Origin: Elusimicrobiota bacterium
GTDB taxonomy: Bacteria; Elusimicrobiota; Elusimicrobia; Elusimicrobiales; UBA9959
Assembly (NCBI GenBank): GCA_016234365.1
Contig: JACRER010000079.1
Location: 15,154 to 79,153, forward strand
Length of the DNA: 64,000 nt
Direction: 5' to 3'
The notes below the pieces were generated by a model. It did not search any database, was not told the origin of the DNA, and saw only the letters and a program-made list of their open reading frames with translations. Shown in pieces: positions 38,175 to 58,328 of the stretch. Numbering within the stretch: position 1 is the first letter of the stretch; every line of letters begins with the position of its first letter. A program made the position numbers and the translations under genes.

Positions 38175-39167
38175 TTAGCGGGAATTTTCCAGTTCTTTGA
38201 CCCAGGCTTCGGCCTCGGCCATGGCGGCGTCCGACGAGGGCGCCGCTTTTCTTTTGAGCCCGTAGAGGACCCGCAGCAGGGCCAGGGCCGGGCGCGGCAG
38301 GAAACTGGCGGAGAGCAGCTTAAGGAAAACCGGTCCGCGCGAAGCGGCGAGGAAAAGATACTCCCGGGCCTTTCCGGGCTGGAGGTTCTTCAGGTATACC
38401 TCGGCCTGCTTCAGGTAGACATAGTCTTTCAGTTCGCGTCCGGCAGCCTCGGGCGGCGCGGCCGTTTCCAGGGCGGCGCGGAAATCCGCTATGCCGTCGT
38501 CCCACTTCAGCGTAAGGCTCGAAGGATTTGCCGAAAGCCCGTGGATGCGGTATACCGACAGCGGTTGGGCTATGAAGTCCGCCTCCCAGTCCCGCAGTAT
38601 CTTCACATAAAGTTCCATGTCCTCCAGGTGGCTAAGGTCCTGGCGGAACGGCCCGGTTTTTGCCAGGACCTCGCGTTTAAAGGCCACGTTGGTGGTGACG
38701 TAGGGCAGCCACTTGTCGGAGATGGCCATGTAGGGCGGCAGCTTGCCGCGAGGAACGGCTCGGCGTTCGTCGAAAAATTTGGAGGTGAGGCGTCCCTCGC
38801 GCAGGATGTAGCCGTTGGAGAAAATAAATCCCGCGGCCGGGTTGCGCCCGATCAGGTCCGCGAATTTTTCCAGCCGGCGCGGCAGCCACAGGTCGTCCGC
38901 GTCCAGGAACGTGATATAGTCCCCGGCTGCGCGCTCCATGGCGTAGTTGCGGCAGCCGCCCTGACGGCGGTTCTCTTCGAACCTGATGAAATTCCAGCCC
39001 TGCTTTCCCGCGAACTCTTTGAACACCTCCGGGGTGGCGTCCTTCGAACCGTCGTCGATTATGAAGGCCTCGTAATCCGTGAAAGTCTGCGCGGCCAGGC
39101 TTTTAAGCGTGAGGCGCAGCAGGTCCGCGCGGTTGTAGGAAGGGATTATTGCGGTGAAGAGCGGCAT
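38175..39167 (-). CDS. family 2 glycosyltransferase with helical C-terminal extension
   Basis: Start trimmed to MPLFTAIIPSYNRADLL...DDGSKD...LDADD. 2 nt after the stop of the upstream gene. Confidence 0.85.
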   Translation of the reverse strand: MPLFTAIIPSYNRADLLRLTLKSLAAQTFTDYEAFIIDDGSKDATPEVFKEFAGKQGWNFIRFEENRRQGGCRNYAMERAAGDYITFLDADDLWLPRRLEKFADLIGRNPAAGFIFSNGYILREGRLTSKFFDERRAVPRGKLPPYMAISDKWLPYVTTNVAFKREVLAKTGPFRQDLSHLEDMELYVKILRDWEADFIAQPLSVYRIHGLSANPSSLTLKWDDGIADFRAALETAAPPEAAGRELKDYVYLKQAEVYLKNLQPGKAREYLFLAASRGPVFLKLLSASFLPRPALALLRVLYGLKRKAAPSSDAAMAEAEAWVKELENSR

Positions 39168-39169
39168 TG

Positions 39170-40372
39170 TCAGCGGCTCCCGAGCCTGCCGCCCAGCAGG
39201 GCCAGCGCGCGCAGCGCCCCGCCGGCGAAGCCGCGCAGGAAAGCGGCGGGGCCGTAGCCGAACAGGCGCCCCGCCATGCCGGCGGCGCCGGAGAAATTGC
39301 CGCGCCGCAGCAGGGAGAACATGGTGAAGGCCAGGCAATTGACGGCCTTGGCTTTGAACGCGCCGCTAAGGAAGACCGGCAGGTCCGCCGGGTTGGCCAG
39401 GTCCTTGTCCGCCAGGGCGGCGGCCAGGGCTTGCGCGGTAGTTTTGGCGTAGGCCTCCGGAGTGTACTCCCTCATGGCCCTGGCGTGGGCGGCGGCCGCC
39501 ATGGCTTCCCGCTTGTCCGGGTTGGCCAGGTAGTAGCGCACCTTCTCCAGCAGTTCTTCCTTGCCGGAGAAGACGTCTATTTCGCGGCCCACTTCGAACA
39601 TCTCCCCGATGGCCGGGGAGCGCTCGGTAAGGCAGAAAGAACCCGCGATAGCTATTTCCCTTGGCCTGCCGGTGTTCTGGCGCACGCGGTTGAGGATGGG
39701 TTCGTCGCCGTTTATCCAGTCCGGATCGGCCAGCTGCGAAAAATTAAGTACTACCTTGCTGCGCGACTGGACGTCGTAGATCTTGTCGGGGGCGAGGTAG
39801 CCGTTGGCTGAACCGGCGCCGTAGACCACCGGCTTCAGGCCGTTGGCTTCGAGATGGCCGATATAGCCGCGGCGGCCTTTCTTGCGCATGTCGCCTACGA
39901 AGCAGACGTCTATGTCGCGGGCCTTGGCCGGAGGAGTTATTGCGTTAGGGACCACTATCTCCTGGCAGAGCACCGCCGGGATGCCCAGCCGCCGGTAGGC
40001 GTGAACGGCCAGGTGGTCCGCGGTTATCACCGCGTCGCCGGCCTGGGCGTAGTATTTGCAGTAGGAATCGAAATAGGTGGAATCGTCGGCGAACCAGAAG
40101 ACCACTTTTACGGAACTGCGCAGCGCCGCGAAGAATTCAGGCGATAACTGGAAGTCGGTGGAGAAGGGGCAGCAGATCAGGATGTCCGGGCGGTCGAGCC
40201 GCACCGCCCGGGTTATGGCCTCTTCGGCCGCGGCGGCGCCGAGGCCGTAGACCAGGTCGGCGTAATTTACCAGTTTCACCTCGCCGAAATGGGGCAGGAA
40301 CGGGTCGAAACGCCGCACGAACCCGTTGAGGTCCGTGGGGTAGAGGATGAGGATGTTCTTGCCTTGCGTCAT
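39170..40372 (-). CDS. CgeB-family glycosyltransferase-like protein (DUF3880 + Glyco_trans_1_2-like)
   Basis: VCFVGDMRKKGRRGYIGHL..., NRVRQNTGRPREIAIAGSFCLTE, ELLEKVRYYLANPDKREAMAAAAHARAMREYT match the CgeB-like pattern from memory. Confidence 0.6.
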   Translation of the reverse strand: MTQGKNILILYPTDLNGFVRRFDPFLPHFGEVKLVNYADLVYGLGAAAAEEAITRAVRLDRPDILICCPFSTDFQLSPEFFAALRSSVKVVFWFADDSTYFDSYCKYYAQAGDAVITADHLAVHAYRRLGIPAVLCQEIVVPNAITPPAKARDIDVCFVGDMRKKGRRGYIGHLEANGLKPVVYGAGSANGYLAPDKIYDVQSRSKVVLNFSQLADPDWINGDEPILNRVRQNTGRPREIAIAGSFCLTERSPAIGEMFEVGREIDVFSGKEELLEKVRYYLANPDKREAMAAAAHARAMREYTPEAYAKTTAQALAAALADKDLANPADLPVFLSGAFKAKAVNCLAFTMFSLLRRGNFSGAAGMAGRLFGYGPAAFLRGFAGGALRALALLGGRLGSR

Positions 40373-40378
40373 CGGGCC

Positions 40379-41701
40379 TCAGAGCAGCGGCCGCTTGCGT
40401 TTGTCGTAGTCGTCGTAAGCTTTCTGCTGGTACTTCATCAGATCTTCGTCCGAAACCTCGGACAGGTTGGCCGCCACGCGCTGGTAATAGGTGTAATCGC
40501 AGTAGTCGTCGGGGTCGTGGCCGGTCAGCAGGCCGCGCTCCACGGCCATCTCGTGCAGGCGGGTGCCAGGGTACGGGGTGGAGATCATGAACTTGGCCAC
40601 TTCGGAGTCCAGCTCGTTGGCGAAGTCCAGCGTGGCTTTGATGGACTCATGGGTGTCGCCGGGCAGCCCTACGATATAGCTGGTCACGCACGGCAGGCCG
40701 GCGTCCTTAAGGATGCGCACGGCCTTGCGGATCTGGTCCTTGGTCTCGCCCTTGCGGATCAGTTTGAGGATCTTCTCGTCCCCTGATTCCACGCCGATGG
40801 CCACCGCGAAACAGCCGGCGCGCTTGAGCGTGGCGGCCAGCTCCGCGTCCAGCGTGTCGGCGCGCGACTGGACGTAGAAACGGATCTTGAGGCCCTTCTT
40901 AATGAGCGTCTCGCAGATCTCGGTGGCGCGGCGCTTGTCTATGGTGAAAGTGTCGTCGTAGAACATGAACTCGCTGATGCCGAACTTGTTGACGAGCAGT
41001 TCTATCTCGGCGATGATATCCGCCGGCGGGCGCAGGCGCGTCTTGCGGCCCCAGATCACCTTCGAGGCGCAGAAGATGCAGTCGAACGGGCAGCCGCGGC
41101 CCAGGATCAGCCCGGCGTGCGCGCCCTTGAAGGTGGAGGGGTCGCGGTAGGCGTCCAGCTCCAGCAGGTCCCAGGCGGGCAGGGGCAGGGCGCCAAGGTC
41201 CTTCAGGAGCGGGCGCAGCGGGTTCACCACGGTGCGGCCGCCGGCCCGGTAGATCAGGTTCAGGATGGCGTCGGGGGATTTGCCGGCCTGCAGGGCGTTG
41301 AGCAGCTCCAGGAACGGCTCCTCGCCCTCTCCCGCCACCGCGTAGTCCACGCAGGCCTCGTCCAGGGCGCGCTTCGGGTCGCCGCTCACGTGCGGACCGC
41401 CGAAGACCACCGTGGTCCGCGGCGAGGCTTTCTTGCATTCGGCCGCTATTTTCAGCGCCGCCGGGTAGCGCGGCGTCAGGCAGGTAAAGCCCACCAGGTC
41501 GGGCTTGCTGTCCAGTATTTTCGCGGCCAGCTCCGCGGGGGTGCCGCCGTGTATGTCGAAATCTATGATGCTGACTTCGTGGCCGTGCGGGCGCACGTAG
41601 GCGGCCAGTATCGCCAGGTTGGTGGGGGTGCGGAAAACCTTCTGCTGCTCCCATTTGCCGGAGCGCTGGAAATTGGGCGGTTCGACCAGTACTATTTTCA
41701 T
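40379..41701 (-). CDS. B12-binding-domain (class B) radical SAM enzyme
   Basis: N-terminal cobalamin-binding-like Rossmann (KIVLVEPP...LAILAAYVRPHGHEV...DLVGFTC). CxxxCxxC as GCPFDCIFC. Confidence 0.85.
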   Translation of the reverse strand: MKIVLVEPPNFQRSGKWEQQKVFRTPTNLAILAAYVRPHGHEVSIIDFDIHGGTPAELAAKILDSKPDLVGFTCLTPRYPAALKIAAECKKASPRTTVVFGGPHVSGDPKRALDEACVDYAVAGEGEEPFLELLNALQAGKSPDAILNLIYRAGGRTVVNPLRPLLKDLGALPLPAWDLLELDAYRDPSTFKGAHAGLILGRGCPFDCIFCASKVIWGRKTRLRPPADIIAEIELLVNKFGISEFMFYDDTFTIDKRRATEICETLIKKGLKIRFYVQSRADTLDAELAATLKRAGCFAVAIGVESGDEKILKLIRKGETKDQIRKAVRILKDAGLPCVTSYIVGLPGDTHESIKATLDFANELDSEVAKFMISTPYPGTRLHEMAVERGLLTGHDPDDYCDYTYYQRVAANLSEVSDEDLMKYQQKAYDDYDKRKRPLL

Positions 41702-41722
41702 CTTAGCGGTGTCTCCCGGGCC

Positions 41723-42781
41723 TCAGAACGGGCCCTTGAATTCCTTGTAGAGGCGTTTTTTGTACTCGGCGGACGGCAGTTCCACGCCGTGGTCCTTCCT
41801 GCCTTTCGCCAGGCGGCAGATCGCGTCGGCGACGGTGCCCATGTCGGGGTAGAAGTGGTTCTCCAGCGTCTTGGCCGTGGGACAGGGCGAATGCGCCTGC
41901 GCTATTTCAATTATGGGGGCCTTCAGCAGGCCGGGGTCGGACGTGGCTACCAGGCGCGAAACTTCCGCGCAGACGCCGAACGGCGCCCAGCCCGCGTCGG
42001 CCACCACCAGGCGGCCGGTCTTGCGCAGGCTGGCGAGCAGCATTTTGGAATCCAGCCGCGTCAGGCAGTGCAGGTCTATGACTTCCGCCTCTATGCCGGC
42101 GCGTTCGCTGAGGAACTTGGCGGCGTTAACGGCGTCGGCCACCATCACGGAGGTGGCAGCCACGGTCACGTCTCGGCCTTCCCTGACCAGGCGCGAGGTG
42201 AAAGGGTCGGGCTGGGGCTTAAGGCCGTCCATGTTGAAGGAATAGTCGTAAAGCGAACGGTGCTCGAACGAGACCACGGGGAAGCGCGCCTTGGTGGCGG
42301 CGTACTCGTAGGTATCCAGCACGCTCTGCGCCGAGGCGGGCATCACCACGGTGAGGCCCGGCACGTGCGACAGCAGGGCCTGCAGGCTCTGGGAATGCTG
42401 GGCGCCCTGGCCCCAGCTGCGGCCTATCACGGCCCGGATCAGGAGCGGCAGTTCGAACAGCCCGCCGTACATGTATTTGTACTTGGCGATGGAGTTCACC
42501 AGCTGGTTCATGGCCAGCAGCATGAAATCCGCGCGGATATGGATATGGACGGGGTAGATGCCGTTGAGGGCCGCGCCCACGGCGAAACCGGTCATGGCGT
42601 CCTCGGAGAGCGGCGTGTCGAACACGCGGCCCGGCCCGAAATCCTTCTCGAGACCCAGCGTGGTGCCGAAGATGCCGGTGAAATCCGTGACGCCCAGGCC
42701 GTAGACCACCGCCGACGGGTTCTTCTCCAGCGCGCCGCGCATGGCCTGCGCCAGCGCCTCCCTGTAGGTCATGGTCTTCAT
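41723..42781 (-). CDS. ThDP-dependent dehydrogenase E1 beta-like subunit (transketolase Pyr and C-terminal domains)
   Basis: MTYREALAQAMRGALEKNPSAVVYGLGV...FDTPLSEDAMTGFAVGAAL...GAQHSQS. ATG at 42781 shares one nt with the alpha-subunit stop (TGATG). Confidence 0.85.
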   Translation of the reverse strand: MKTMTYREALAQAMRGALEKNPSAVVYGLGVTDFTGIFGTTLGLEKDFGPGRVFDTPLSEDAMTGFAVGAALNGIYPVHIHIRADFMLLAMNQLVNSIAKYKYMYGGLFELPLLIRAVIGRSWGQGAQHSQSLQALLSHVPGLTVVMPASAQSVLDTYEYAATKARFPVVSFEHRSLYDYSFNMDGLKPQPDPFTSRLVREGRDVTVAATSVMVADAVNAAKFLSERAGIEAEVIDLHCLTRLDSKMLLASLRKTGRLVVADAGWAPFGVCAEVSRLVATSDPGLLKAPIIEIAQAHSPCPTAKTLENHFYPDMGTVADAICRLAKGRKDHGVELPSAEYKKRLYKEFKGPF

Positions 42782-43704
42782 CAGCACACGTCCTTGAGCA
42801 CTTCGTCGCAGGAGGGGAAGGGCGAGCGCTCGGCAAAGTCCACGGCGGCCGCTATTTCCCTGTCCAGCTCCGACTTGAATTTAGCTATCAGCGTTTTGTC
42901 GGTGGCCAGCGGGTCGCGGGCCCGCCAGGCCTCGTACTCGGCCCTGTCGCGGTAGCCTTTGTCGAAATCCTGCGCCACTCCGACGTGCTGCATGTAGCGG
43001 TAGGCGCGGATCTCGTAGACCTCGGGGCCGCCGCCGGCGCGCACGCGGGCGGCTATGCGGCCCGCGGCCCCGGCCACGGCGGGCATGTCCAGCCCGTCTT
43101 TGGAAAGAGTGTAGGGTATGCCGTACGCCCCGGCTAGCTTTTCCAGCGAGAAAGCCTGCCGCGTCGCCAGGTGGGAGTGGATGGCGAGGCCGTTGTTCTC
43201 TATCACGAACAGGAGCGGCAGTTTTTTGAGCGCCGCGAAGTTGAGGCATTCGTGGAATACGCCTTCCTCGGTGGAGTCGTCGCCCGTCAGCGACACCACT
43301 ATCTCGCTGCGGCCGCGCAGCTGGAAGGCGTAGGCGGCGCCGAGCGCGTGGGAGAGCGTGGCCGCTACGATGGCCGAGGAGCCCATCAGGCCCGTCTCCG
43401 GCCAGCAAAGATGCATGGAGCCGGCCTTGCCCTTGGAGACTCCGGCCGCCTTGCCGTAAAGTTCGGCGAACATGCGCGGCATGTCGCCGCCCTTGGCCAG
43501 GTAGGCGGCGTGGCTGCGGTAAGTGGTGTAGAGCTGGTCGGTATCCGCCAGCGCGGCTATGAGCGCCGCCGTGTGCGGCTCCTGGCCTATGGACAGGTGC
43601 ACGGGGCTCTGGATCTTGTCGCTGGGGTAGATCTCGGCGATCTTTTCCTCGGCCAGGCGGATGCGCAGCGCCTGGCGGAACATTTCCTCGTAGGAGGTTT
43701 TCAT
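42781..43704 (-). CDS. ThDP-dependent dehydrogenase E1 alpha-like subunit
   Basis: Start trimmed to MKTSYEEMFRQALRIRLAEEKI. SPVHLSIGQE, YRSHAAYLAKGG, ThDP motif GDDSTEEGVFHECLNFAALKKLPLLFVIENN. ATGA overlap with the upstream gene. Confidence 0.85.
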   Translation of the reverse strand: MKTSYEEMFRQALRIRLAEEKIAEIYPSDKIQSPVHLSIGQEPHTAALIAALADTDQLYTTYRSHAAYLAKGGDMPRMFAELYGKAAGVSKGKAGSMHLCWPETGLMGSSAIVAATLSHALGAAYAFQLRGRSEIVVSLTGDDSTEEGVFHECLNFAALKKLPLLFVIENNGLAIHSHLATRQAFSLEKLAGAYGIPYTLSKDGLDMPAVAGAAGRIAARVRAGGGPEVYEIRAYRYMQHVGVAQDFDKGYRDRAEYEAWRARDPLATDKTLIAKFKSELDREIAAAVDFAERSPFPSCDEVLKDVC

Positions 43705-44693
43705 CTGCCGGCCTCCCGGGCGACTTCCGCCCGGCAGTGCTCCAGCAGGAAGGCCACGCTGTCCTTGAAGGAGTAGCGCGGCTTCCAGCCGGTCTGCCGC
43801 GCGAACTTGCGCACGTCCGGGATCTGGAGGGTCACGTCGGTGGGCCTGAAAAGTTTCGGGTCGGGCTTGGAGGGGACGGGGCACTTGGCCAGTTTCTTGA
43901 GCAGCGCCAGGAACTCGCCCACTTTTATGACGGTAGTGCCGCCGATGTTGTAGGCCTGGCCGAACTCACAGCGGTTCATGGCCGCCCAGTAGGACGCCAT
44001 GGCGTCGCGCACGTCTATGAGCGTGCGCGTGGAGTCCAGGTTGCCGTGCAGCAGCGTCTTCTGCAGGCCGGCCTCGATGCGGGCCACCTGCATGGCGAAC
44101 GACGTGGCGAACAGGTCCGCGCGGCGCGGGTTGAGGTAGGCGAACATGCGGGTGCGGATAACCTTCATGCCGTAGTTGGCGAAGTAGGTGTAGCCCAGCA
44201 GGTCCTGCGCCGCCTTGGAGACGGCGTACGGGCTGGCCGGGCGGAAGCGGCATTCCTCGGAGATCGGCACGTCCTTCTTTTCCACCTGGCCGTAGACCTC
44301 GGAGGTGCTGCACAGCTGTATTACCGGGTTGGCGCCGGAAGCGCGGACCGCTTCGAACAGGTTGGCCGTGCCCATGACGTTGTTGTTGAGCACCGCCAGC
44401 GGCGTGGCGAAGGAGGCGCGCACGTTGGCGTGGGAGGCGATATGGAAGATGCCGTCGGGGCGCACCGCGCGCACCGTGTCCAGCACGGACTTGAAATCCA
44501 GCAGGTCGCATTCGTGCAGGGTCACGCGGCCGCGGCACAGGGCGAGGTTCTTGCCCGAGGAAGTGCTGTGCCAGCGCGAGATGCCGTGGACGGCCGTGCC
44601 GGGGTGGTTGTCCGCTATATAGTCCGCCAGGTAGCTGCCGCCGGAGCCGGTGATGCCGGTGATTATGACCCGCTTGAATTTCCTGTTCTTCAT
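43701..44693 (-). CDS. NDP-sugar 4,6-dehydratase of the GDP-mannose dehydratase (Gmd) type
   Basis: ITGITGSGGSYLADYI, HIASHANVRASF, STSEVYG, PASPYAVSKAA, NLDSTRTLIDVRD parallel Gmd motifs. Confidence 0.75.
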   Translation of the reverse strand: MKNRKFKRVIITGITGSGGSYLADYIADNHPGTAVHGISRWHSTSSGKNLALCRGRVTLHECDLLDFKSVLDTVRAVRPDGIFHIASHANVRASFATPLAVLNNNVMGTANLFEAVRASGANPVIQLCSTSEVYGQVEKKDVPISEECRFRPASPYAVSKAAQDLLGYTYFANYGMKVIRTRMFAYLNPRRADLFATSFAMQVARIEAGLQKTLLHGNLDSTRTLIDVRDAMASYWAAMNRCEFGQAYNIGGTTVIKVGEFLALLKKLAKCPVPSKPDPKLFRPTDVTLQIPDVRKFARQTGWKPRYSFKDSVAFLLEHCRAEVAREAGR

Positions 44694-45631
44694 CAGACGT
44701 TCCCGTACCTGGAATTGCGCAGGATCGCGTAGCCTTTTATGAGCTCGTCGATGCCGTCGTCCAGGGAGTAGCCGGGGCGGAAGCCCGTCTTCTCTATCTT
44801 TTCGTTGGAAACTATGTAGTCGCGCTTGTCCACGTCCTCGCCTACCGGGGACTCCAGGTAGACGAACTTGGGCAGGTGCTCCTTGATCTTGGCGCAGAGC
44901 TGCAGTTTGGAGAGATTGGCCTGGCTCAGGCCCACGTTATAAGCCCCGCCGCGCATCTTGCCGAACTTGTTGAGCACGTGGGAGAAGGCCTTGGCCACGT
45001 CCATGATGTGTATGTAGTTGCGGCGGAAGTGGCCTTCGAAGATGATGACGAAGCGGTCGGTGACGGCCCGGTAGACGAAGTCGTTCACCAGCAGGTCCAG
45101 GCGCATGCGCGGCGACATGCCGAACACCGTGGCCAGGCGCAAGCTGACCGAATTTTCGCGGGCCAGTACGGCTTTCTCCGCGTCCACTTTTACGCGGCCG
45201 TAGAGGGAAATGGGGTTCAGGGGTGTCTTTTCGGTGCAGTACTTGTCTTTGGCGCCTATGCCGTAGCCGCTGTTGGTGGTGGGGTAAACTATGCGCTGCT
45301 CCCTGGCGGCGTTCCTGGCTATCCAGCGCACCGCCTCGAAGTTGACGGTTTTGGCGGCGGTGACGTCGTTGTCGCAGAGCGGGGCGCCTACCAGCGCCGC
45401 CAGCGGGATGACCACGTCCGCCTTTTTCAGCAGAGGTTTAACCTTGCGCGGGTCGCGCGCGTCGCCGCGCACCACGTTGAAGGCTTTGTTGCGGCAGCAG
45501 TCGGCCAGGGAATTCTGGCCGTACATGAAATTATCCAGCACGGTGACCCGGTGGCCCAGCGAAAGCAGCTGCGGTACCAGCACCGACCCAAGGTAACCGG
45601 CCCCGCCGGTTACGAGTATGTCCTGTCCCAT
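44693..45631 (-). CDS. NAD(P)-dependent sugar epimerase/reductase (extended SDR)
   Basis: VTGGAGYLGS Rossmann motif; YGRVK (YxxxK). 1-nt overlap with the downstream gene. Confidence 0.8.
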   Translation of the reverse strand: MGQDILVTGGAGYLGSVLVPQLLSLGHRVTVLDNFMYGQNSLADCCRNKAFNVVRGDARDPRKVKPLLKKADVVIPLAALVGAPLCDNDVTAAKTVNFEAVRWIARNAAREQRIVYPTTNSGYGIGAKDKYCTEKTPLNPISLYGRVKVDAEKAVLARENSVSLRLATVFGMSPRMRLDLLVNDFVYRAVTDRFVIIFEGHFRRNYIHIMDVAKAFSHVLNKFGKMRGGAYNVGLSQANLSKLQLCAKIKEHLPKFVYLESPVGEDVDKRDYIVSNEKIEKTGFRPGYSLDDGIDELIKGYAILRNSRYGNV

Positions 45632-45661
45632 TTTTATCTCCGTCGCGGCCCTCGCGGGCCG

Positions 45662-46864
45662 CTATATCTTTCCAGTTAAGAACCGTTTCGTCAGTTCTAT
45701 GAAATAGTCTATGTGTTCCTCGTTGATGTCCTGGTGCAGGCCGATGTGCAGGCCGTTGTCGGCGCAGTATTCCGCCTCGGGGAATTCGCCGAGCTTGTGC
45801 CCCAGGAAAGAGAAGCCCGGGCACTGCGTAGGCATGGAGAGGAACAGGCTGCGGGTGTCCACGCCGTTGTCTTCAAGGTACGTCATGAGCTGGTCCCGGG
45901 TGAACTTGGCGCCGGGGGGCACCAGCACGGGGAAAGCGTAGGGCGCCATCTCCTCGCCGGCCACTGGGTCTATGGTCAGCAGGTGCGGTTTGAGGGCGGC
46001 GAACTGCTTGTGGATATACTTGAAATTGCGCAGGCGCGCCGCGAAGATCTTGGGGTAGATGTCCAGGTAGCCCAGGCCGATGGCGGCCTCCAGTTCGTTC
46101 ATCTTGGCGGAGAAGCCCACGCGCTCGAAGATGAAGCGGATGTCGGTGCCGCGCTTGAAGCGCTTGTCGCAATGGCCGCCGCTGACGCTCATCATGCAGG
46201 TTTCGCATTTGCAGGCGCGGCCGTGCGCGCGCAGCGAGCGCAGGGTGTTGGCGTATTCCGGGTTGTTGGTGGCCACTATGCCGCCCTCGCCGGTGGAGAT
46301 GACGTGCGCGATGTAGAGGCTGAAGGCCGCCATGTCGCCCAGCGTGCCTATCTCCTTGCCGCGGTAGGTGCCGCTCTGCGCTTCGGCCGCGTCCTCCACC
46401 ACCAGCAGTTTGTGCTTCTTGGCGACGCGGTTAACGGCCTCCATGTCGGCCGGTTTGCCCATCAGGTGCACGGGCATGATGGCCCTGGTGCGCGGGCCGA
46501 CGGCGGCCTCTATCTTTTTAGGATCGATGTTGAGGGTGGTCCGTTCTATGTCCACGAATTTGGGGATAAAGCCGGCCTGCAGCACGGCGTTGCCGGTGGC
46601 CACGAACGAGAGCGACGGGACGATGACCTCGTCGCCGCGTTTGGCGCCGAGGTCGTAGAGCACGGCCAGCGCCAGCGCGTCGGCGTCGGTGCCCGAGGAC
46701 ATGGCCACGGCTTCCTTGGTGCCGACCAGCTTGGCGAAGCCGCGCTCGAATTCGCGCACCAGTTTGCCGCCGGAGATGCGGCCGGAGTCCAGCGCGCCGT
46801 TCACCAGCTGTTTGGTCTTGTCGGTTATCGTTATCGTGCCGAAGGGGTAGCGGAGTTTTTTCAT
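45662..46864 (-). CDS. DegT/DnrJ/EryC1-family PLP/PMP enzyme with His replacing the Schiff-base Lys (E1/ColD-type sugar 3-dehydratase candidate)
   Basis: AFSLYIAHVISTGEGG has His at the position 5 residues before GEGG where aminotransferases have Lys. Cys cluster CKCETCMMSVSGGHC starts 31 residues after that His. Confidence 0.65.
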   Translation of the reverse strand: MKKLRYPFGTITITDKTKQLVNGALDSGRISGGKLVREFERGFAKLVGTKEAVAMSSGTDADALALAVLYDLGAKRGDEVIVPSLSFVATGNAVLQAGFIPKFVDIERTTLNIDPKKIEAAVGPRTRAIMPVHLMGKPADMEAVNRVAKKHKLLVVEDAAEAQSGTYRGKEIGTLGDMAAFSLYIAHVISTGEGGIVATNNPEYANTLRSLRAHGRACKCETCMMSVSGGHCDKRFKRGTDIRFIFERVGFSAKMNELEAAIGLGYLDIYPKIFAARLRNFKYIHKQFAALKPHLLTIDPVAGEEMAPYAFPVLVPPGAKFTRDQLMTYLEDNGVDTRSLFLSMPTQCPGFSFLGHKLGEFPEAEYCADNGLHIGLHQDINEEHIDYFIELTKRFLTGKI

Positions 46865-47559
46865 ACCAGATGCCCTGCTTTCCTGAGTACGGCTTCCGCC
46901 GTTGCGTATCTTTCCGGGGTGCCAATATCGAGCAGCGGCGCCGCGGTCCTGAACCCGTAAAGCCTGCCGAGCCGGGGGAACAGGTCGTATTCGAAAGAGT
47001 ATTTTTTGCCGGCGGGTATTTCCGCAAGCAGCGACCTGTCCAGCAGGTAGACTCCCGCGTTCACCAGGCCGCCGGCCTTGCGCCCCGTCTTTTCAAGGAA
47101 GGCGGTTATCCGGCCTCCGGCCGCCAGCCGCACCGTGCCCACGTCGCCGCGGCCCGAGGGTTTGGCCAGCGCCACCGAGGCCAAGGCCCGCTTGCGCCGG
47201 TGGAAGGCCGCGAAACGTTTCAGGTCCACCGCGCAGAAAGAATCCCCGTTGAGTACCAGGAAGCTGGTCCCCTTTATGAGCCGCCGCGCGTTCTTTACCG
47301 CGCCGGCCGTGCCCAGGGGTTTGGCTTCCACGGAGACGGCTACGTCGGCCGCCGCGGCGTAATGCCGCTTTATGACCCCGGCCCTGTAGCCGGCGCACAG
47401 CACGAACCTGCGCACTCCGCGCCGGCGCAGGCCCGCCAGCAGCAGGTCCAGAAAAGGCTTGCCGGCCACCTCGGCCATAGGCTTGGGGCGGCCTTTAACC
47501 GCCGCCCGCAGGCGCCGTCCGAGGCCGCCGCAGAGGATGACCGCTTCCGGGCCGGTCAT
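46861..47559 (-). CDS. sugar-1-phosphate nucleotidyltransferase (HddC/ManC-like)
   Basis: AVILCGGLGRRLR...KPMAEVAGKPFLD, PLGTAGA, NGDSF. ATGA-type overlaps on both sides. Confidence 0.8.
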   Translation of the reverse strand: MTGPEAVILCGGLGRRLRAAVKGRPKPMAEVAGKPFLDLLLAGLRRRGVRRFVLCAGYRAGVIKRHYAAAADVAVSVEAKPLGTAGAVKNARRLIKGTSFLVLNGDSFCAVDLKRFAAFHRRKRALASVALAKPSGRGDVGTVRLAAGGRITAFLEKTGRKAGGLVNAGVYLLDRSLLAEIPAGKKYSFEYDLFPRLGRLYGFRTAAPLLDIGTPERYATAEAVLRKAGHLV

Positions 47560-48557
47560 TTCCAGTCGGTCCCGTGCGAATAATAAATTATCTGGCTGCC
47601 GAAGTACTCGAACTTAAAGGGAATGAACAGCAGGTCCTTCAGCGCTTCCTTTATCTTCGCCTGCTTTTCCGGCTCGGCGTAAAAGAGCATGAACCCGCCG
47701 CCGCCGGCGCCCAGCAACTTGCCGCCTTCGGCGCCGCAGCGCAGCGCGGTCTCGTGGATCTGGTCGATGTGGGAGTTGCTGATCTTGCCCGACAGGGAGC
47801 GCTTCATCTTCCAGGTCTCGTTGAGCAGGCGTCCGAAAGCCGGCAGGTCCGGCTTGTGCGCGGTGACGAGCCCGCAGGCCTCGTCCACCAGGGCGGCCAT
47901 GCGCTCGAGCTCGCGCCCGTTGCGCCCGACGTTGGCTATCTGTTCGTGCGCTATGTCGGAAGCGTTGCGCGACAGGCCGGTAAAGACCAGCATCAGCCGG
48001 TTCTCCAGGGCCGCCACGTTCTCCGTGGTCATGATCACCGGGGAAACCACTATCTCCCGGTTGGGAAGGAATTCGATGCGGTTAAAGCCGCCGTGCGCCG
48101 CGAACACCTGGTCCTGCGAGCCCACGTTCTCGGCTATATCGTTCTGCTCTATGTCGATGGCGAGCTCGCCGAGGTCGCCCTTGGAGATGGCCTTGCCGTC
48201 CATGGCGTGCATGGCGTTGAGCAGCCCCACCGTGAAGGCGGAGCTGGAGCCCATGCCGGAGCGGGCCGGGATGTCCCCGTCGTGGTGTATGGAAATGCCT
48301 TTGGCGTACTTGAGGCGTTTGAGCACGGCCTTGACCGCCGGGTGGGCGATCTCGTCTATCTCCTTTACGTTCTCCATGCGGGAATAGACGATGCGGTGCT
48401 TGTGTTCGAAGAAGGGGGGGAGTTCGCGGACTATGAGGTAGCAGTATTTGTCTATGGCGGCGCCCAGCACCTTGCCGCCGTGCTTGAGATACCAGGACGG
48501 GTAGTCGGTCCCGCCGCCGAAAAATGAGATCCTGTGCGGAGTCTTGGTTATGATCAT
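47556..48557 (-). CDS. GHMP-family sugar kinase (HddA / fucokinase-like)
   Basis: ATG at 48557 gives MIITKTPHRISFFGGGTDY. GHMP motif PARSGMGSSSAF. Confidence 0.8.
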   Translation of the reverse strand: MIITKTPHRISFFGGGTDYPSWYLKHGGKVLGAAIDKYCYLIVRELPPFFEHKHRIVYSRMENVKEIDEIAHPAVKAVLKRLKYAKGISIHHDGDIPARSGMGSSSAFTVGLLNAMHAMDGKAISKGDLGELAIDIEQNDIAENVGSQDQVFAAHGGFNRIEFLPNREIVVSPVIMTTENVAALENRLMLVFTGLSRNASDIAHEQIANVGRNGRELERMAALVDEACGLVTAHKPDLPAFGRLLNETWKMKRSLSGKISNSHIDQIHETALRCGAEGGKLLGAGGGGFMLFYAEPEKQAKIKEALKDLLFIPFKFEYFGSQIIYYSHGTDWK

Positions 48558-48582
48558 AGGCCCGGCCGCGCCGGAAACCAAT

Positions 48583-48610
48583 ATTATATTAATAATTAAA
48601 GGCCGTTCAA
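48583..48610 (-). promoter_or_regulatory. sigma70-type promoter internal to the glycan locus
   Basis: Reverse strand reads TTGAAC-16 nt-TATAAT, about 25 nt upstream of the kinase ATG. It overlaps a weak GGCCG/CGGCC hairpin plus T-rich run just after the methyltransferase stop. Confidence 0.5.
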
Positions 48611-48623
48611 ACGGCGGCCGGGG

Positions 48624-49604
48624 TCAGCCGCGGCGGGCGGCTATGGCGAACAGCTGGGTGCCGCGCCCGGGCCGCGTCAGCCTGTAGTAGAGCATCATCC
48701 AGAAGAAGACCGGGAAGGTGAACACGTGCAGGACGTCGTAAAAAGCCTTTACCAGCCGCTGGCGCGTCCTGGCCGAGCGCAGGAAGCCGGGCGTGCCGGC
48801 GCCGGCGGCGGCCGCCGCGGTGAAGGTGACCGAGTCGGGGGTGCCTTTGGGCAGCAGCACGGCCCGCGCCGCCTTCATGGCCAGTTCCCGCAGCGCGCTG
48901 ATGAAGCGCCGCGAAAATTCCCAGACCGGCAGGTAGGAAGAATCCAGCCGAACTATCTCCAGCCCGTGGCTGGCCAGGAAGGCCGTAAGCGCGCCGCGCG
49001 TCCAGCGGGTCAGGTGGTGGGGCGGCATGTCGAAATAATCGCGCCCGAACGGCAGCGGCCGGTCGGTATTGGGCGTGGTCAGGGCCAGCTGCCCGCCGTC
49101 TTTGAGCAGCGAGGAGATCCGGTCCAGTTCGGCGTTGGGATCGTCGAGGTGTTCGATGCAGTCGAAATAGGTGATGAGGTCGAACTTCAGGCCGGGGAAT
49201 TTTTCGCGGAAGGCGTTAAGGTCGCCCATGAAGAGGTTGGCGAGGCCTTTTGCGCGCGCCGCCGCTATGGCCTCGGGGTTGATGTCTATGCCGTAAGCCT
49301 CGAAACCGGCCGCCTGCGCCATCGCCAGGAAGACGCCGGTGCCGCAGCCTATGTCCAGCGCCAGCCGGCCGCGTCCGTCTTGGCCGCGCAGTACCTCTTT
49401 AAAATGGGGCTTGGGGGTTTCCTCGTAGCCGGCGGCGCTGGAGAACCTGGCGTACCAGCCGGCCCCCGGGTTTTTAAAGGGGTCCGCGAATTCCACGCCG
49501 CAGCCGGCGCAGCGCAACACGGCGTAGGAGGCCTTGTCCACCGGGTCCAGCCAGGTTTCCAGGCGCGTGTGCGCGGAGACGGAGCCGCAGACGGGGCAGT
49601 TCAC
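48624..49604 (-). CDS. class I SAM-dependent methyltransferase with N-terminal zinc ribbon and C-terminal hydrophobic tail
   Basis: CPVCG...CAGCG. Motif I LDIGCGTG. Motif post-II ITYFDCIEHL. Confidence 0.8.
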   Translation of the reverse strand: MNCPVCGSVSAHTRLETWLDPVDKASYAVLRCAGCGVEFADPFKNPGAGWYARFSSAAGYEETPKPHFKEVLRGQDGRGRLALDIGCGTGVFLAMAQAAGFEAYGIDINPEAIAAARAKGLANLFMGDLNAFREKFPGLKFDLITYFDCIEHLDDPNAELDRISSLLKDGGQLALTTPNTDRPLPFGRDYFDMPPHHLTRWTRGALTAFLASHGLEIVRLDSSYLPVWEFSRRFISALRELAMKAARAVLLPKGTPDSVTFTAAAAAGAGTPGFLRSARTRQRLVKAFYDVLHVFTFPVFFWMMLYYRLTRPGRGTQLFAIAARRG

Positions 49605-50575
49605 GCGGCGCTCCCGGAGCGCGGAGAGCGCAGCCTGGCGTAGAAGGAGTGCAGGCGCAGATAAAGGGAGGGGCTCAGGACGGAAAAGACCAGCGTCGCC
49701 GCGGTGAAAAAACGGCGCGGGGAGGAGCTGCGGAGGACCTCTTTTATGATGGTCCCCAGCGCGGCCCGGCGTTCGCCGCGGCGGGAATAGTAGAGGACGC
49801 GGGCTTTGGCAAGTTCCATGGGCAGCGGCACGTTCGTCTTCTTTATATCCACGCCGGCCGCCTTAAGCCTGGCGGCCAGTTCCTTAAGGATCACCGCCTT
49901 GACCTTGATGTAGTTGCCCAGGCGGCGCGTGTCCGCCATGGTGCCGGCGAACCAGTTGGCGCCGTGGATCTTCTTGAAGCCGAGCACCGAATTTATGGAC
50001 CGGACGCGGGAGTGGATAAGGATGCAAAGGTAAAGGTACTCGTCGGCGCAGTAGAAGAGGCCGGCGGGCACGGGCAGGACCCTGTCGAGGAAGGAACGGC
50101 GGAAAGCCAGCCCGCTGGTGCCGGTGAAACTCGCCCGGCCTTCCAGCAGGTCCTTGAGTTCGTAATGGTCCGGCCGCCGGTCGAACTGCTGGCTCAGCGG
50201 GTTGCCGGCCGGGTCCACGTCCATCATGAAATGCTGCACCATGCCGATATCCGCGGCTTCGGCGAAGGCCGCGGCCGCGGCCTTGAGCTTGTCCGGTTTC
50301 CACGCGTCGTCGGCGTCCAGCAGGCAGACGAACTCCCCGGAGGCTTCCCTGAGCCCGGTGTTGAAGGCCGAGGCCTGCCCCGAGTTCTCCTGGTAAAAAT
50401 ATTTTACGCCTCGGCCGTACCTGGCCAGGCGCAGCGCGGTGTCGTCGGTGGAACCGTCGTCCACCACTATCAGCTCAAATTCCCCGCGCGGGAAGTCCTG
50501 CGCGAGTACGCTGTCCACCGCTTCCTCTATGTAGCGGCCGTAGTTGTAGGTGCCTATGATGACCGAAAATTTCAC
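49601..50575 (-). CDS. family 2 glycosyltransferase
   Basis: KFSVIIGTYNYGRYIEEAVDSVLAQ...VVDDGSTD...LLDADD. Confidence 0.88.
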   Translation of the reverse strand: MKFSVIIGTYNYGRYIEEAVDSVLAQDFPRGEFELIVVDDGSTDDTALRLARYGRGVKYFYQENSGQASAFNTGLREASGEFVCLLDADDAWKPDKLKAAAAAFAEAADIGMVQHFMMDVDPAGNPLSQQFDRRPDHYELKDLLEGRASFTGTSGLAFRRSFLDRVLPVPAGLFYCADEYLYLCILIHSRVRSINSVLGFKKIHGANWFAGTMADTRRLGNYIKVKAVILKELAARLKAAGVDIKKTNVPLPMELAKARVLYYSRRGERRAALGTIIKEVLRSSSPRRFFTAATLVFSVLSPSLYLRLHSFYARLRSPRSGSAA

Positions 50576-52008
50576 GCCGCCCCTCCGTCCCGGCCGAAGC
50601 CGGCGGTGCGCGCCAGCAGGGCCAGGTCTTCTCTGGTAACGCCTTTCAGCAGCAGCAGCGCGGCGGCGTAGGCAGCGGCGCCCGCCCCGATAAGGAGAAA
50701 AACGTTGCGGCCGCCCAGGGCCGCCAGCAGCAGCGCCATCAGCGCCGAGGCCGCCAGCGGCTTCAGGGACTGCCTGAGCGGCACCGTGTAGACCGCGCGG
50801 GTCTGGAAATAATAGACGGCGTTGGTGACGCCGTAGGAGGCCACGAAGGAGGCCGCCAGCCCGACGGAGCCGTAAACCGGGATCAGCAGCAGGCCCAGGG
50901 CCACCGACAGCAGCGCCTGCGTGAAGCTGATCCAGAGGTTCTTGTTCTGCTTATGCGCGGCCAGCAGCGAGAAGGAAAAAATATTGTTCAGGAAGATCAG
51001 GTACGGCAGCACCGCCAGGACCTTCAGGAGCAGCCCGGCCTCCAGGAATTTGTCGCCGTAGATCAGGTGGATGATGGGGTCCGCCAGCATGAAGAGCCCC
51101 GTTATGGCGGGGTAGCTGACTATGGCCATCCATTTCAGCGTCACGTCCATTATTTTTTTGAAGGTTTCGGGGTTGTGCAGGTAATGCTTGGAGATGGCGG
51201 GGAACACCGCCGCGGCATAGGCGACCAGGGCCTCGACGAGGATCCAGATGATCTTGTAGGCGGCGGAGAAATAGCCCACTTCCTGCGTACCGCGCGTGAA
51301 GCCCAGGATGGTCACCCCGGAGTTGAGGACTATTATGGTCATCACGCCCCAGACGGCCACCGGCAGCGTCTGCCTGAAAACCTCTTTGGAGAATTCCGGG
51401 ACGAAGCGGAAAGCGTAGCCGGGATCGAGGCGGCGGTAGGCCAGGAACATGAAGAGGACGGCGGCGGCCTGCGCGGCCAGCAGCAGCAGCGGGATGCGCG
51501 GCAGGTCGGCGCTGCCGCCCACGAACAGCAGCACGGCGCCCAGGTAGACCAGCCCCTGCAGGACCGCGGCGGCGCCCAGGAATTCCATCCGCTCTATGCC
51601 CTGGAAGACCCAGTCGAAGGTAAGCACGTTGGCCGTGAACATGGTCAGGCCGTAAGCCGCGGTGAGCAGTTTCAGTTCCCGGCCCTGCGGCATGAAAAAG
51701 GCGAAAGCCGCCAGCAGCGTGAACGAGGCCAGGCCCAGCACCAGCTTCAGGCTGATGTTGGCGTTGATGTAGTCTCCCTGGCCGGCCTGCCGCTGGGCCA
51801 ATTCGCGGATGCCTACGGTGCCCAGGCCCAGGTGCGCCAGGATGGCGAAATAGCTGACCAGCGCCAGCGCGAAGTTCATGGCCCCGAAATCCTCCGGGCC
51901 CAGCACGCGCGCCAGGTACACCACCGTCATCAGGCCGAAGGCCTTTGAGACGGCGTTTGAGAAGGTGAGCGACAGGAAATTCCTGAAAATAGTGCTGCCG
52001 GCGTTCAT
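50572..52008 (-). CDS. MOP/Wzx-type polysaccharide flippase
   Basis: 478 aa, about 12-14 TMs. N-terminus FRNFLSLTFSNAVSKAFGLMTVVYLARVLGPEDFG is typical of the polysaccharide biosynthesis protein family. Confidence 0.85.
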   Translation of the reverse strand: MNAGSTIFRNFLSLTFSNAVSKAFGLMTVVYLARVLGPEDFGAMNFALALVSYFAILAHLGLGTVGIRELAQRQAGQGDYINANISLKLVLGLASFTLLAAFAFFMPQGRELKLLTAAYGLTMFTANVLTFDWVFQGIERMEFLGAAAVLQGLVYLGAVLLFVGGSADLPRIPLLLLAAQAAAVLFMFLAYRRLDPGYAFRFVPEFSKEVFRQTLPVAVWGVMTIIVLNSGVTILGFTRGTQEVGYFSAAYKIIWILVEALVAYAAAVFPAISKHYLHNPETFKKIMDVTLKWMAIVSYPAITGLFMLADPIIHLIYGDKFLEAGLLLKVLAVLPYLIFLNNIFSFSLLAAHKQNKNLWISFTQALLSVALGLLLIPVYGSVGLAASFVASYGVTNAVYYFQTRAVYTVPLRQSLKPLAASALMALLLAALGGRNVFLLIGAGAAAYAAALLLLKGVTREDLALLARTAGFGRDGGAA

Positions 52009-56848: not shown

Positions 56849-57066
56849 AAAATTGGAACGGAGCTTCAGGGTGAAAGTTCGACACTACTTTGCGTCACAT
56901 CCCGAGGTTAACTTATAAATACCGCTGATCAGCCGTGAAATCTGCGGTAGGGGCCCACACGCCGGCCCATCAGAGGGCCGGCTGCGGGCTCGCTCTGCTC
57001 CACCATAAGGTGCCCCGCTCTTATTGCAGATACAGAAAATTATTCCCCGCGCGCACTGCAAAGAGT
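56821..57066 (-). ncRNA. candidate structured RNA (independent sRNA or cis leader of the kinase operon), class unknown
   Basis: No credible ORF. TATAAA-like box near 57068-57073 on the reverse strand. Several stems, e.g. GCCGGCCC-tctgat-GGGCCGGC and CTCTTTGCAG/CTGCAAtaAGAG. Ends in the terminator above. Confidence 0.3.
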
Positions 57067-57182
57067 TTATAAATGTTTACCTTGCAGACTCTGCCCGCGC
57101 TAGCCAGTGGCTGCGCCACTCGCGGCGCGGGCTTGTTCCTGTTAACGTTGAGGAGCATTAATGCCGGTGGCCCCGGAATAAT

Positions 57183-57232
57183 AAAACACCGCCCCGGCGC
57201 CCGCTGCTGCGGCCGCCGCGGCGGTCTTTTTT
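57183..57232. terminator. GC-rich bidirectional terminator-like hairpin in gene-free DNA
   Basis: AAAAC-ACCGCC...GGCGGT-CTTTTTT, with an A-run on the left and a T-run on the right. Confidence 0.45.
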
Positions 57233-57414
57233 GTCAATTATTTGTAGCCACCGGCAGAGGCAGAGCCCAACAAAAAATAAGGTGGGACCAGGGCGGTCGC
57301 GGCTTGCCGCGGGATGGCCGCCGCCCCCGCCCTGGCCCGGCCTATTCCCCAACTTGTGGGCCGTCTGCGTGATTTTGTAAGGACAATTGTTATAGAATAG
57401 GCCATGGTTAGGCT

Positions 57415-58140
57415 ATGGGCAACTCGATATTAATTACCGAAGACGAGAAGTCTTATCTCAGGTCGCTTTCTCAGTATTTCACGCTATTGGGCTTTACCGT
57501 CCATGCCGCTACAAATTCTAAGGACACTATCCGCCTCGCTTCCGAACATCTCCCAGACTGTTTTCTGCTGGACTATAACCTCGGCGATGAGACCGTCGCA
57601 CCGGCCTGTCTTTTTATCCGTTCACACTCCCAGCTCAGGAGCGCGCCAATTATTGTCCTGAGCGGCGCGCATGAAAAGGCGGAAGAGTGCTATAACAACT
57701 GCAACGCCGACCTGTTCCTTGAAAAGGGTAAGCCTTTTACCGAAGTGGGGGCGGCGGTCAAACGACAGTTGCGCCGCATGGCGGTGCCGCCTTCTGTAAA
57801 ATCTTCGGATATTGTGGTTTCTGAGGAGCGCCTGAGCATTACAAGAGAAGGCTATTCGGAGATACTGCTCTCCGCGGAGCAGTTTAAGCTCTTCTTGCTG
57901 CTTTTTCAGAGAAGTCCAGGATTTGTTTCCGAAGATGAGATTTGCTCCGCCGTTCTCAACTCTGATTGCGGGGACAAACGGGAAGCTATAAATATGCTTG
58001 TTTACCGGCTGCGGAGCCGCCTTGGACTACGGCTCGGAAAGCGGATAAAGAGCCGGAAGCGTCTCGGTTGGGCTTATGTGCAGCCCAGGGTCCGGGGCGA
58101 GGCGCCGCCAAAGTCATCCGATGAAACTGCCAGTCGCTAA
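57415..58140 (+). CDS. orphan OmpR-family response regulator (divergent acidic pocket)
   Basis: ILITEDE, CFLLDYNLGD, IIVLSG, EKGKP. Winged helix LSAEQFKLFLLLFQ...LVYRLRSRLG...LGWAY. No kinase adjacent. First gene of the lower-GC segment. Confidence 0.8.
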   Translation: MGNSILITEDEKSYLRSLSQYFTLLGFTVHAATNSKDTIRLASEHLPDCFLLDYNLGDETVAPACLFIRSHSQLRSAPIIVLSGAHEKAEECYNNCNADLFLEKGKPFTEVGAAVKRQLRRMAVPPSVKSSDIVVSEERLSITREGYSEILLSAEQFKLFLLLFQRSPGFVSEDEICSAVLNSDCGDKREAINMLVYRLRSRLGLRLGKRIKSRKRLGWAYVQPRVRGEAPPKSSDETASR

Positions 58141-58282: not shown

Positions 58283-58328
58283 ATTGCCGGGAATTTGATT
58301 TTATGCTGGCATCGGTAGAGGGGAAGCT

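Follow-up and report, generated by a model that had tools for sequence, protein, structure and literature searches.

Two adjacent genes on the minus strand of a 64,000-nt stretch of Elusimicrobiota DNA (contig JACRER010000079.1; the whole stretch is called the window below) code for the alpha and beta subunits of an E1 enzyme dependent on thiamine diphosphate (ThDP). Judging by homology and gene neighbourhood, this pair is probably a ThDP carboligase that takes an acetyl group from pyruvate and attaches it at C4 of a GDP-4-keto-(3-deoxy)heptose; we are less confident about the specific donor, position and sugar than about the carboligase model. The chemistry itself is already known. The apparent novelty lies in the association of an E1-type enzyme with GDP-heptose enzymes within a surface-glycan operon, and in its membership of a broad conserved clade.

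The E1 pair and its catalytic residues

The E1 alpha gene (42781..43704, minus strand) codes for the 307 aa ThDP/Mg-binding subunit (Pfam E1_dh, 8.8e-47). It is followed by the E1 beta gene (41723..42781, minus strand), whose 352 aa product combines the pyrimidine-binding and C-terminal domains (Transket_pyr, 4.9e-27; Transketolase_C, 6.7e-23). These profile matches agree with the coordinates and gene calls of an earlier reading of the bare sequence (the original prediction), and the translational coupling which it reported is present too: the alpha start codon overlaps the TGA of the upstream dehydratase gene (ATGA at 43701-43704, read in GGC AGA TGA AAA), and the beta ATG shares one base with the alpha TGA (TGATG at 42779-42783, read in TGC TGA TGA AG).

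Both the domains and the adjacent alpha-then-beta gene order are those of the heterotetrameric 2-oxoacid dehydrogenase E1 fold. The top PDB relatives of both subunits are human and bacterial E1 alpha and beta proteins of pyruvate dehydrogenase (PDH) and branched-chain 2-oxoacid dehydrogenase (BCKDH). Beta Glu60 (PLSEDA), beta His129 (AQHSQS) and alpha His240 (YMQHVG) align with the catalytic residues of the reference enzymes and are conserved across the clade described below. Two other identities were considered and rejected. A split transketolase does not fit the alpha subunit, which matches E1_dh and not Transketolase_N, with just a weak DXP_synthase_N match; a single-chain enzyme similar to YerE would have TPP_enzyme_N, _M and _C domains, and none of these is encoded in the operon.

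Lack of E2 and E3 genes and a separate clade

In 2-oxoacid dehydrogenase complexes E1 works together with a lipoyl-acyltransferase (E2) and a dihydrolipoamide dehydrogenase (E3). Nine E2 and E3 probes were taken from five annotated operons (Phaeobacter, Streptomyces, Acinetobacter aco, Sphingobium PDH and S. aureus PDH). The probes detect one another's loci, which served as a positive control, and tblastn with them (E <= 1e-3) gave no match in the whole window. Nor was there any match in 85 related loci (±10 kb). Pfam scans, which covered the operon with its flanks and a sample of open reading frames (ORFs) from the ribosomal-protein and low-GC ends of the window, likewise showed no lipoyl, 2-oxoacid_dh or dihydrolipoamide dehydrogenase domain.

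Relatives of the pair were found by scanning one genome per GTDB species, and at least 572 stretches encode them. Lineages and identities of clade members were taken from the best 80 of these stretches, which are 50-90% identical. The clade spreads over about 18 phylum-level lineages: the carriers include Elusimicrobiota, Nitrospirota, many Alphaproteobacteria, Gammaproteobacteria, Desulfobacterota-type lineages, Verrucomicrobiota, Omnitrophota, Marinimicrobia, Chloroflexota, Bacteroidota, Actinomycetota, Cyanobacteria/Sericytochromatia and Campylobacterota, among others. Some carriers are in culture: Marinomonas aquimarina CECT 5080, Catenovulum maritimum Q1, Azospirillum oleiclasticum, Rhodospirillum sp. 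A1_3_36, Mucilaginibacter sp. PPCGB 2223 and Nitrospira. The nearest genome among the matches listed is the metagenome-assembled genome 'Elusimicrobia bacterium GWA2_62_23', which has a 90% identical E1 beta and keeps synteny over the whole operon.

Alignments and neighbour-joining trees were built for 78 beta and 73 alpha clade sequences together with five E2-linked reference E1s, and for both subunits the clade excludes all five. Median identity is 56-60% among clade members and 24-36% (29-35% for beta) between the clade and the references, which are 28-50% identical among themselves. Among the outside sequences, just one pair groups with the clade; it comes from an Azospirillum thermophilum plasmid, where a DegT-family gene and a short-chain dehydrogenase/reductase (SDR) gene come next. 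For classical E1 beta genes carried by plasmids identity does not exceed about 40%, and those plasmid E1s of Streptomyces and Streptantibioticus which we inspected are E2- or lipoyl-linked, or unannotated.

Both window subunits score below the NCBIfam cut-offs for PDH E1 (alpha, 238.7 bits against the TIGR03182 cut-off of 393.85; beta, 246.7 bits against the NF006667 cut-off of 321). The clade has its own signatures. In alpha these are QSPVHLSIGQE, YRSHA and GDGAtEEG...ENNG, together with a 3-residue insertion in the loop that bears the phosphorylation sites of eukaryotic E1. In beta they are GqGVdD, GRSWGQGAQHSQS, PCPTAK and a conserved clade-specific C-terminal extension of about 25 residues which ends in GPF. 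Thus, the window pair shares domain architecture, alpha-beta gene order and catalytic Glu and His residues with acetoin dehydrogenase E1 (AcoA/AcoB) and the heterotetrameric PDH and BCKDH E1s, but differs from them in the beta extension and alpha motifs, in an identity of just 24-36% for alpha and 29-36% for beta, and in that neither the window nor the related loci encode an E2, E3 or lipoyl protein.

The claim of the original prediction that E2 and E3 are missing nearby is therefore borne out by the negative searches of the whole window and 85 related loci with working controls. The phylogenetic comparison with acetoin, pyruvate and branched-chain dehydrogenase E1s which it suggested places the pair in a clade of its own, with no tight clustering with acetoin dehydrogenase E1. 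Its view that lipoamide is an unlikely acceptor gains support from the missing E2 and E3, the separate clade and the scores under the PDH E1 cut-offs, all of which point away from lipoamide.

A stand-alone E1 alpha/beta pair without E2 or E3 was also seen outside the sugar-associated clade, on plasmid p2 of Azospirillum argentinense (L090, 7000-8984). It adjoins a TRAP transporter and TauD-type dioxygenases and represents a different orphan use of the E1 fold.

Conserved neighbours of the E1 pair

For a survey of partner genes, the window proteins were compared with the related loci by tblastn and all ORFs of these loci were clustered; partners were counted over the 43 loci with full 10-kb flanks. 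E1 alpha is present in all 43. A SDR similar to GDP-mannose 4,6-dehydratase (GMD-like) is found in 41, a HddA-like GHMP kinase of the heptose type in 38, a nucleotidyltransferase in 25 and a SDR similar to Cj1427 in six. No partner of the E1 pair is better conserved than the GMD-like gene, which lies directly next to the pair in 44 of 82 loci. Conservation of the Cj1427-like SDR amounts to 60-94% in the loci of Elusimicrobia, Sulfurimonas and Azospirillum thermophilum. One locus (L085) has the Cj1427-like SDR and lacks the GMD-like gene, while the reverse is true of most other loci.

Twenty DegT-family genes are located near E1 pairs, and the products of 18 have histidine in place of the lysine that holds pyridoxal phosphate (PLP). 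Such His-type 3-dehydratases belong to two subfamilies: the E1/RfbH-like one (YIAHVISTGEGG) is found in the window and in L005, L006, L011 and L004, the ColD-like one (FSHHISTMEGG) in eleven other loci. The DegT genes of L008, L037 and L085, which are 29-34% identical, were considered as true aminotransferases; this was rejected because their products also carry His at the Lys position and are dehydratases of the ColD type.

Non-orthologous keto-sugar enzymes thus substitute for one another next to the E1 pair, which argues that what the pair requires is the keto sugar itself. Two unrelated generators of a 4-keto group and two 3-dehydratase subfamilies form the pattern that would be expected if a (3-deoxy-)4-keto sugar were the common requirement.

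Other recurrent neighbours in the related loci are split transketolases (27-30), NUDIX hydrolases (24), RmlC-like epimerases (22), aldo-keto reductases (20), additional SDRs, B12-radical SAM enzymes and methyltransferases. The aldo-keto reductase gene adjoins E1 beta in L001/L006.

In Elusimicrobia RIFOXYA12_FULL_51_18 (L001/L002/L006, about 9-17.6 kb) a single sugar locus includes three different ThDP enzyme systems, namely the E1 pair, a split transketolase and a YerE-like protein with TPP_enzyme_N/M/C domains; an aldo-keto reductase and an enzyme of the B12-radical SAM type are encoded there too. Such a composition suggests several C-C bond-forming steps on one sugar.

In Nitrospirales (L017, L018, L021, L022, L024, L027, L031, L033, L035, L036, L038, L061 and L064) the module of E1, GMD-like and GHMP kinase genes adjoins flagellar genes, and the same is seen in Terasakiella magnetica (L003). 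The flagellar genes concerned encode FlgK, FlgL and FliW, or FlgE, FlgD and FliF. In these bacteria the module may be part of a flagellin glycosylation island.

Partner enzymes and the likely sugar scaffold

All genes discussed in this section belong to the same minus-strand operon as the E1 pair. The HddA-like GHMP kinase (47556..48581; GHMP_kinases_N and _C domains) is of the heptose-7-phosphate anomeric kinase type. Its top PDB matches are the D-glycero-D-manno-heptose phosphate kinases 3k85, 4n3o and WcbL 4usk (1e-41 to 1e-43). The HddC/ManC-like sugar-1-phosphate nucleotidyltransferase (46861..47559; NTP_transferase, 9.7e-26), probably a guanylyltransferase, is closest to Yersinia 6jq8/5xhw, named 6-deoxy-D-mannoheptose pathway protein (~1e-35).

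The extended SDR gene (44693..45631) codes for a close, full-length homologue of 6vo6/6vo8 (6vo6: 8.3e-112, 376 bits, residues 1-311 of both proteins), which we take to be the Campylobacter jejuni GDP-heptose C4-dehydrogenase Cj1427. Cj1427 was described as an alpha-ketoglutarate-recycled GDP-heptose C4-dehydrogenase (PMC10680097). The GMD-like SDR encoded at 43701..44693 (GDP_Man_Dehyd, 3.5e-64) contains the STSEvYG (STSE) motif common to dehydratases and Rmd-type reductases. It shares the PRR motif with three dehydratases, whereas two Rmd reductases have GPGQ at this place; this one difference gives modest support to a dehydratase over a Rmd-type reductase. The GMD-like SDR is thus the probable generator of a 4-keto-6-deoxy acceptor, and the Cj1427-like SDR is a possible second candidate for making the 4-keto group.

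The DegT-family gene (45662..46864; DegT_DnrJ_EryC1, 4.5e-95; top NCBIfam match RfbH) codes for a sugar 3-dehydrase of the E1/RfbH (DdhC) type, dependent on pyridoxamine phosphate (PMP). Its His187 aligns with Lys186 of perosamine synthase, a residue marked by a K186A mutant entry, and with His220 of the Yersinia CDP-6-deoxy-4-hexulose 3-dehydrase, marked by a H220K mutant entry. An aminotransferase is ruled out by His187 at the PLP-lysine position and by the RfbH match. The CxCxxC...C segment of the window protein partly aligns with the Cys-rich segment of the Yersinia E1 dehydrase, which presumably binds the [2Fe-2S] cluster of that enzyme.

A B12-binding-domain radical S-adenosylmethionine (SAM) enzyme is encoded at 40379..41701 (Radical_SAM, 1.6e-33; B12-binding, 1.2e-26), beginning 21 nt past E1 beta. 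Its top PDB match is the diol dehydratase AprD4 (7.1e-39), followed by B12 methyltransferases. It may perform a tailoring step, with C-methylation and radical dehydration as candidates. The same position is also filled in L005, L008 and L037, at just about 30% identity.

GDP-heptose enzymes are the closest solved relatives of four window enzymes (the kinase, the nucleotidyltransferase, the Cj1427-like SDR and the GMD-like dehydratase), and homologues of GmhA and/or GmhB are encoded beside the module in eight related loci. Because of this, GDP-heptose is the most likely scaffold. The original prediction had proposed a keto sugar as the acceptor of the carboligation. The keto-sugar part agrees with the context described here, but the sugar is likelier to be a GDP-heptose than a generic hexose, and there are two possible 4-keto generators instead of one. 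Carboligation as such receives comparative support from the GMD-like SDR in 41 of 43 loci, the Cj1427-like SDR in six, the His-type 3-dehydratases among DegT-family neighbours (18/20) and the actinomycete precedent considered next.

Comparison with known branched-sugar pathways

E1 alpha/beta pairs were proposed or shown to add pyruvate-derived C2 branches to keto sugars in the biosynthesis of avilamycin, paulomycin, aldgamycin, kosinostatin and kibdelomycin, and the reaction of the kibdelomycin pair was demonstrated in vitro with ketone analogues (PMC12247030, PMC4802897, PMC4753412). Like the window pair, AviB1/AviB2, Pau11/12 = Plm8/9, AlmDI/DII and KbDH-alpha/beta are encoded without E2 or E3 among NDP-sugar genes, beside a 4,6-dehydratase gene. 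There, as proposed or demonstrated, the keto sugar receives a pyruvate-derived C2 unit and is then reduced or otherwise tailored (in the paulomycin pathway the branch is reduced by Pau7, of the aldo-keto reductase family; PMC4753412), and the same reaction is what we propose for the window. The actinomycete pairs act on dTDP-deoxyhexoses for secondary metabolites of Gram-positive bacteria, while in the window the partners are of the GDP-heptose type and the operon is a surface-glycan one, with Wzx and glycosyltransferase genes, in Elusimicrobiota. Unlike the actinomycete pairs, the clade studied here spans about 18 phylum-level lineages, and the two groups are likened by gene context and description.

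Cell-surface polysaccharides are also the context of YerE/YerF (yersiniose A of the Yersinia pseudotuberculosis O antigen), ErwE and MygE. YerE adds the branch to CDP-3,6-dideoxy-4-keto-glucose in the synthesis of yersiniose of Yersinia lipopolysaccharide (LPS) (PMC9306805). The likeness extends to the pathway: the acceptor is made by a 4,6-dehydratase and a PMP-dependent 3-dehydrase of the E1/RfbH type, and a 3,6-dideoxy-4-keto sugar receives its acyl branch at C4 from a ThDP-dependent enzyme. The enzymes are different, however: YerE is a single-chain flavoprotein of the decarboxylase superfamily (TPP_enzyme_N/M/C) acting on a CDP-hexose, while the window encodes a two-subunit E1 fold whose partners point to GDP-heptose.

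The closest solved relatives of the four window enzymes named above come from the GDP-heptose pathways of C. jejuni (HddA, HddC, Cj1427, 4,6-dehydratase and C3-dehydratase) or are their Yersinia and Burkholderia counterparts. In C. jejuni, GDP-3,6-dideoxy-4-keto-heptose has been demonstrated as a pathway intermediate (PMC10440746). The C. jejuni pathways have no ThDP step and end with epimerases and C4-reductases, the place of which is taken by the E1 pair in the window; another difference is that the window 3-dehydrase is of the Fe-S (E1/RfbH) type and that of C. jejuni is of the ColD type.

Proposed pathway

The gene anatomy can be read directly from the window, and homology and synteny let us propose every catalytic step. 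The pair would act as an alpha2beta2-type ThDP enzyme, a free-standing carboligase of nucleotide-sugar biosynthesis and not a part of a dehydrogenase complex. The HddA-like kinase and HddC-like nucleotidyltransferase would supply GDP-heptose, which the 4,6-dehydratase-like SDR or the Cj1427-like C4-dehydrogenase would convert to a GDP-4-keto sugar. The His-type PMP-dependent 3-dehydrase would then remove the 3-OH group, giving GDP-3-deoxy (or 3,6-dideoxy)-4-keto-heptose. E1 alpha/beta is expected to decarboxylate pyruvate to hydroxyethylidene-ThDP, the carbanion of which would add to the C4 carbonyl and produce a 4-C-acetyl tertiary alcohol. Tailoring of the branch could follow, through its reduction, the action of the radical SAM enzyme encoded next door, or both; possible candidates in the window are the SDRs, the radical SAM enzyme and the methyltransferase. 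Finally, the glycosyltransferases of the operon would move the sugar onto a lipid-linked glycan to be flipped by Wzx. Presumably, the end product is a yersiniose-like branched sugar on a heptose base.

Several points weigh against this model. For all clade members the carboligase case is built from homology and synteny, and the likeness to E1s of the AviB1/B2 type lies in gene context and described chemistry, not in sequence. Pyruvate as the donor, C4 as the position and a heptose instead of a hexose as the sugar are all inferences. With two candidate 4-keto generators in the operon, it may be that one of them (or the GMD-like enzyme) serves some other purpose. Neither GmhA/GmhB nor an E3-type reductase partner for the Fe-S-type 3-dehydrase was found in the window. 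Lastly, the window alpha subunit is alone among 73 clade sequences in having Asp in the place of the second Gly of the GDG motif, and this E1 copy could be impaired, or the base in codon 143 could be an assembly error.

Alternative explanations

A different reaction of a ThDP-dependent enzyme in the same sugar pathway is the best of the alternatives, although we consider it unlikely. Another donor (hydroxypyruvate or 2-oxobutyrate) may be used, or another carbonyl (C3) attacked; the enzyme may extend or cleave a chain, or supply an acyl group or aldehyde for the glycan. Gene context ties the pair to nucleotide-sugar metabolism and fixes neither donor nor position. About 30 related loci with a split transketolase and one Elusimicrobia locus with a YerE-like enzyme indicate several C-C bond-forming steps in the neighbourhood, and near the active site the clade departs from classical E1s (EEG for NQG after GDG, and the 3-residue insertion in the alpha loop). 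On the other hand, 3-dehydratases making 3-deoxy-4-keto sugars, the acceptor of the YerE type, recur beside the pair, and according to a recent review the E1-type (alphaKADH2) sugar enzymes characterised so far use pyruvate only and make only C2 branches (PMC12247030).

The second alternative concerns the window copy, whatever the clade does generally: its E1 may be catalytically dead or crippled by the substitution mentioned above. The window alpha reads GDD instead of GDG (G143D), while the 72 remaining clade sequences (of 73) and all seven reference E1 alphas have Gly. The GDG...NN motif of ThDP enzymes binds Mg-diphosphate, and in some of these enzymes Ala or Ser is tolerated where the second Gly stands. 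Of the motifs that the original prediction described as intact-looking, the beta Glu and the NN end are indeed conserved, as are both His residues, but GDDSTEEG departs from the canonical GDG. Of the canonical pattern GDG-X(~26)-NN, the window alpha keeps the Mg-binding Asp142 and Asn170/171, with 29 positions between them. The alpha gene has no frameshift or stop codon, its coupling to the neighbouring genes is preserved, and its product is otherwise 83% identical to the L005 orthologue, the nearest relative, which carries GDG. The substitution amounts to a single GGC to GAC change at codon 143 (43276-43278, minus strand), for which a sequencing or assembly error is possible. No record of the exact window E1 alpha protein was found in the public protein collection, L005 being the closest. 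G143D may be harmless, impairing or an assembly error, and an inactive window enzyme seems improbable to us.

It is very improbable that the pair is an ordinary acetoin, pyruvate or branched-chain E1, placed in a sugar operon incidentally and served by E2 and E3 from other parts of the genome: the full E1 fold with all catalytic residues that reductive acylation also needs and the automated homologue names ('acetoin:DCPIP oxidoreductase', 'PDH E1 beta') would suit it, but E2 or E3 accompany the pair in none of 85 loci, synteny with sugar genes is kept over about 18 phylum-level lineages, the clade stands apart from E2-linked E1s and under the family cut-offs, and the extension of about 25 residues alters the C-terminal end of beta, which we take to be the region contacting the E2 binding domain in Geobacillus E1.

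Significance of the clade

We tentatively suggest that the sugar carboligase proposed for the window represents a large E1-fold clade, found in up to several hundred species from about 18 phylum-level lineages, that builds undescribed C-branched heptose-derived C9-C10 sugars on GDP intermediates for surface polysaccharides and, in Nitrospirales and Terasakiella, probably for flagellin glycans. E1 alpha/beta sugar C-branching has so far been documented just for actinomycete antibiotics. A 2025 review links YerE-like enzymes with LPS sugars and E1-type ones with secondary metabolites, citing about 120 clusters with E1-type enzymes (PMC12247030). Our search of the literature for this clade or module in O-antigen, capsule and flagellin-glycosylation contexts found no relevant report. 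If the suggestion is true, the above split of the field is wrong, and E1-type branching belongs to the mainstream of bacterial glycan biosynthesis. Also predicted would be branched heptose-derived sugars of a new class on the surfaces and flagella of bacteria. Further consequences would be new carboligases making chiral tertiary alcohols and the correction of hundreds of 'acetoin/pyruvate dehydrogenase E1' annotations. Since candidate GDP-keto-heptose substrates are already enzymatically accessible (PMC10440746, PMC10680097), the prediction is directly testable.

Organisation of the operon and the rest of the window

The glycan operon comprises 13 tightly packed minus-strand genes (38175-52008), most of which overlap by 1 or 4 nt. 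They follow in the order Wzx, family-2 glycosyltransferase, methyltransferase, GHMP kinase, nucleotidyltransferase, DegT-family protein, SDR, GMD-like SDR, E1 alpha and beta, radical SAM enzyme, CgeB-like protein and a second family-2 glycosyltransferase. The first gene (50572..52008) codes for a Wzx-type polysaccharide flippase (Polysacc_synt, 1.5e-31; MurJ-like). Next to it are the first family-2 glycosyltransferase (49601..50575), 74% identical to its L005 homologue and cross-matching the last operon gene, and a SAM-dependent methyltransferase-like protein (48624..49604) with weak NCBIfam methyltransferase matches (UbiG, 1.8e-11). Downstream of the radical SAM gene are those of a putative CgeB-like glycosyltransferase Glyco_trans_1_2 (39170..40372; PF13524, 1.8e-22) and, at the end of the operon, the second family-2 glycosyltransferase (38175..39167; Glycos_transf_2, 8.6e-34; L005 copy 87% identical).

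The window and L005 are syntenic, and from the GHMP kinase through E1 beta their products are 73-94% identical. Divergent versions have replaced three other products, namely the radical SAM enzyme (30% identity), the methyltransferase (37%) and the CgeB-like glycosyltransferase (54%), a pattern that resembles serotype-style cassette variation.

Outside the operon, the window consists of chromosomal housekeeping DNA, including the ribosomal protein/SecY/Adk/Map/RpoA operon, mreBC-PBP2-RodA and FtsH. Neither the Rfam nor the tRNA scan of the window gave a match. At 57000-64000 the GC content falls from about 62% to 48-57%. ORFs of this stretch code for a phage tail collar domain protein (58329-59315), a 738-aa protein with an M23 peptidase domain (60889-63105) and several proteins without a Pfam match; the stretch may have been horizontally acquired. 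At the other end of the window, directly upstream of the ribosomal protein operon, a trypsin-family serine protease is encoded at 386-1237 (Pfam Trypsin, 4.3e-63), a representative of a family that is rare among bacteria.

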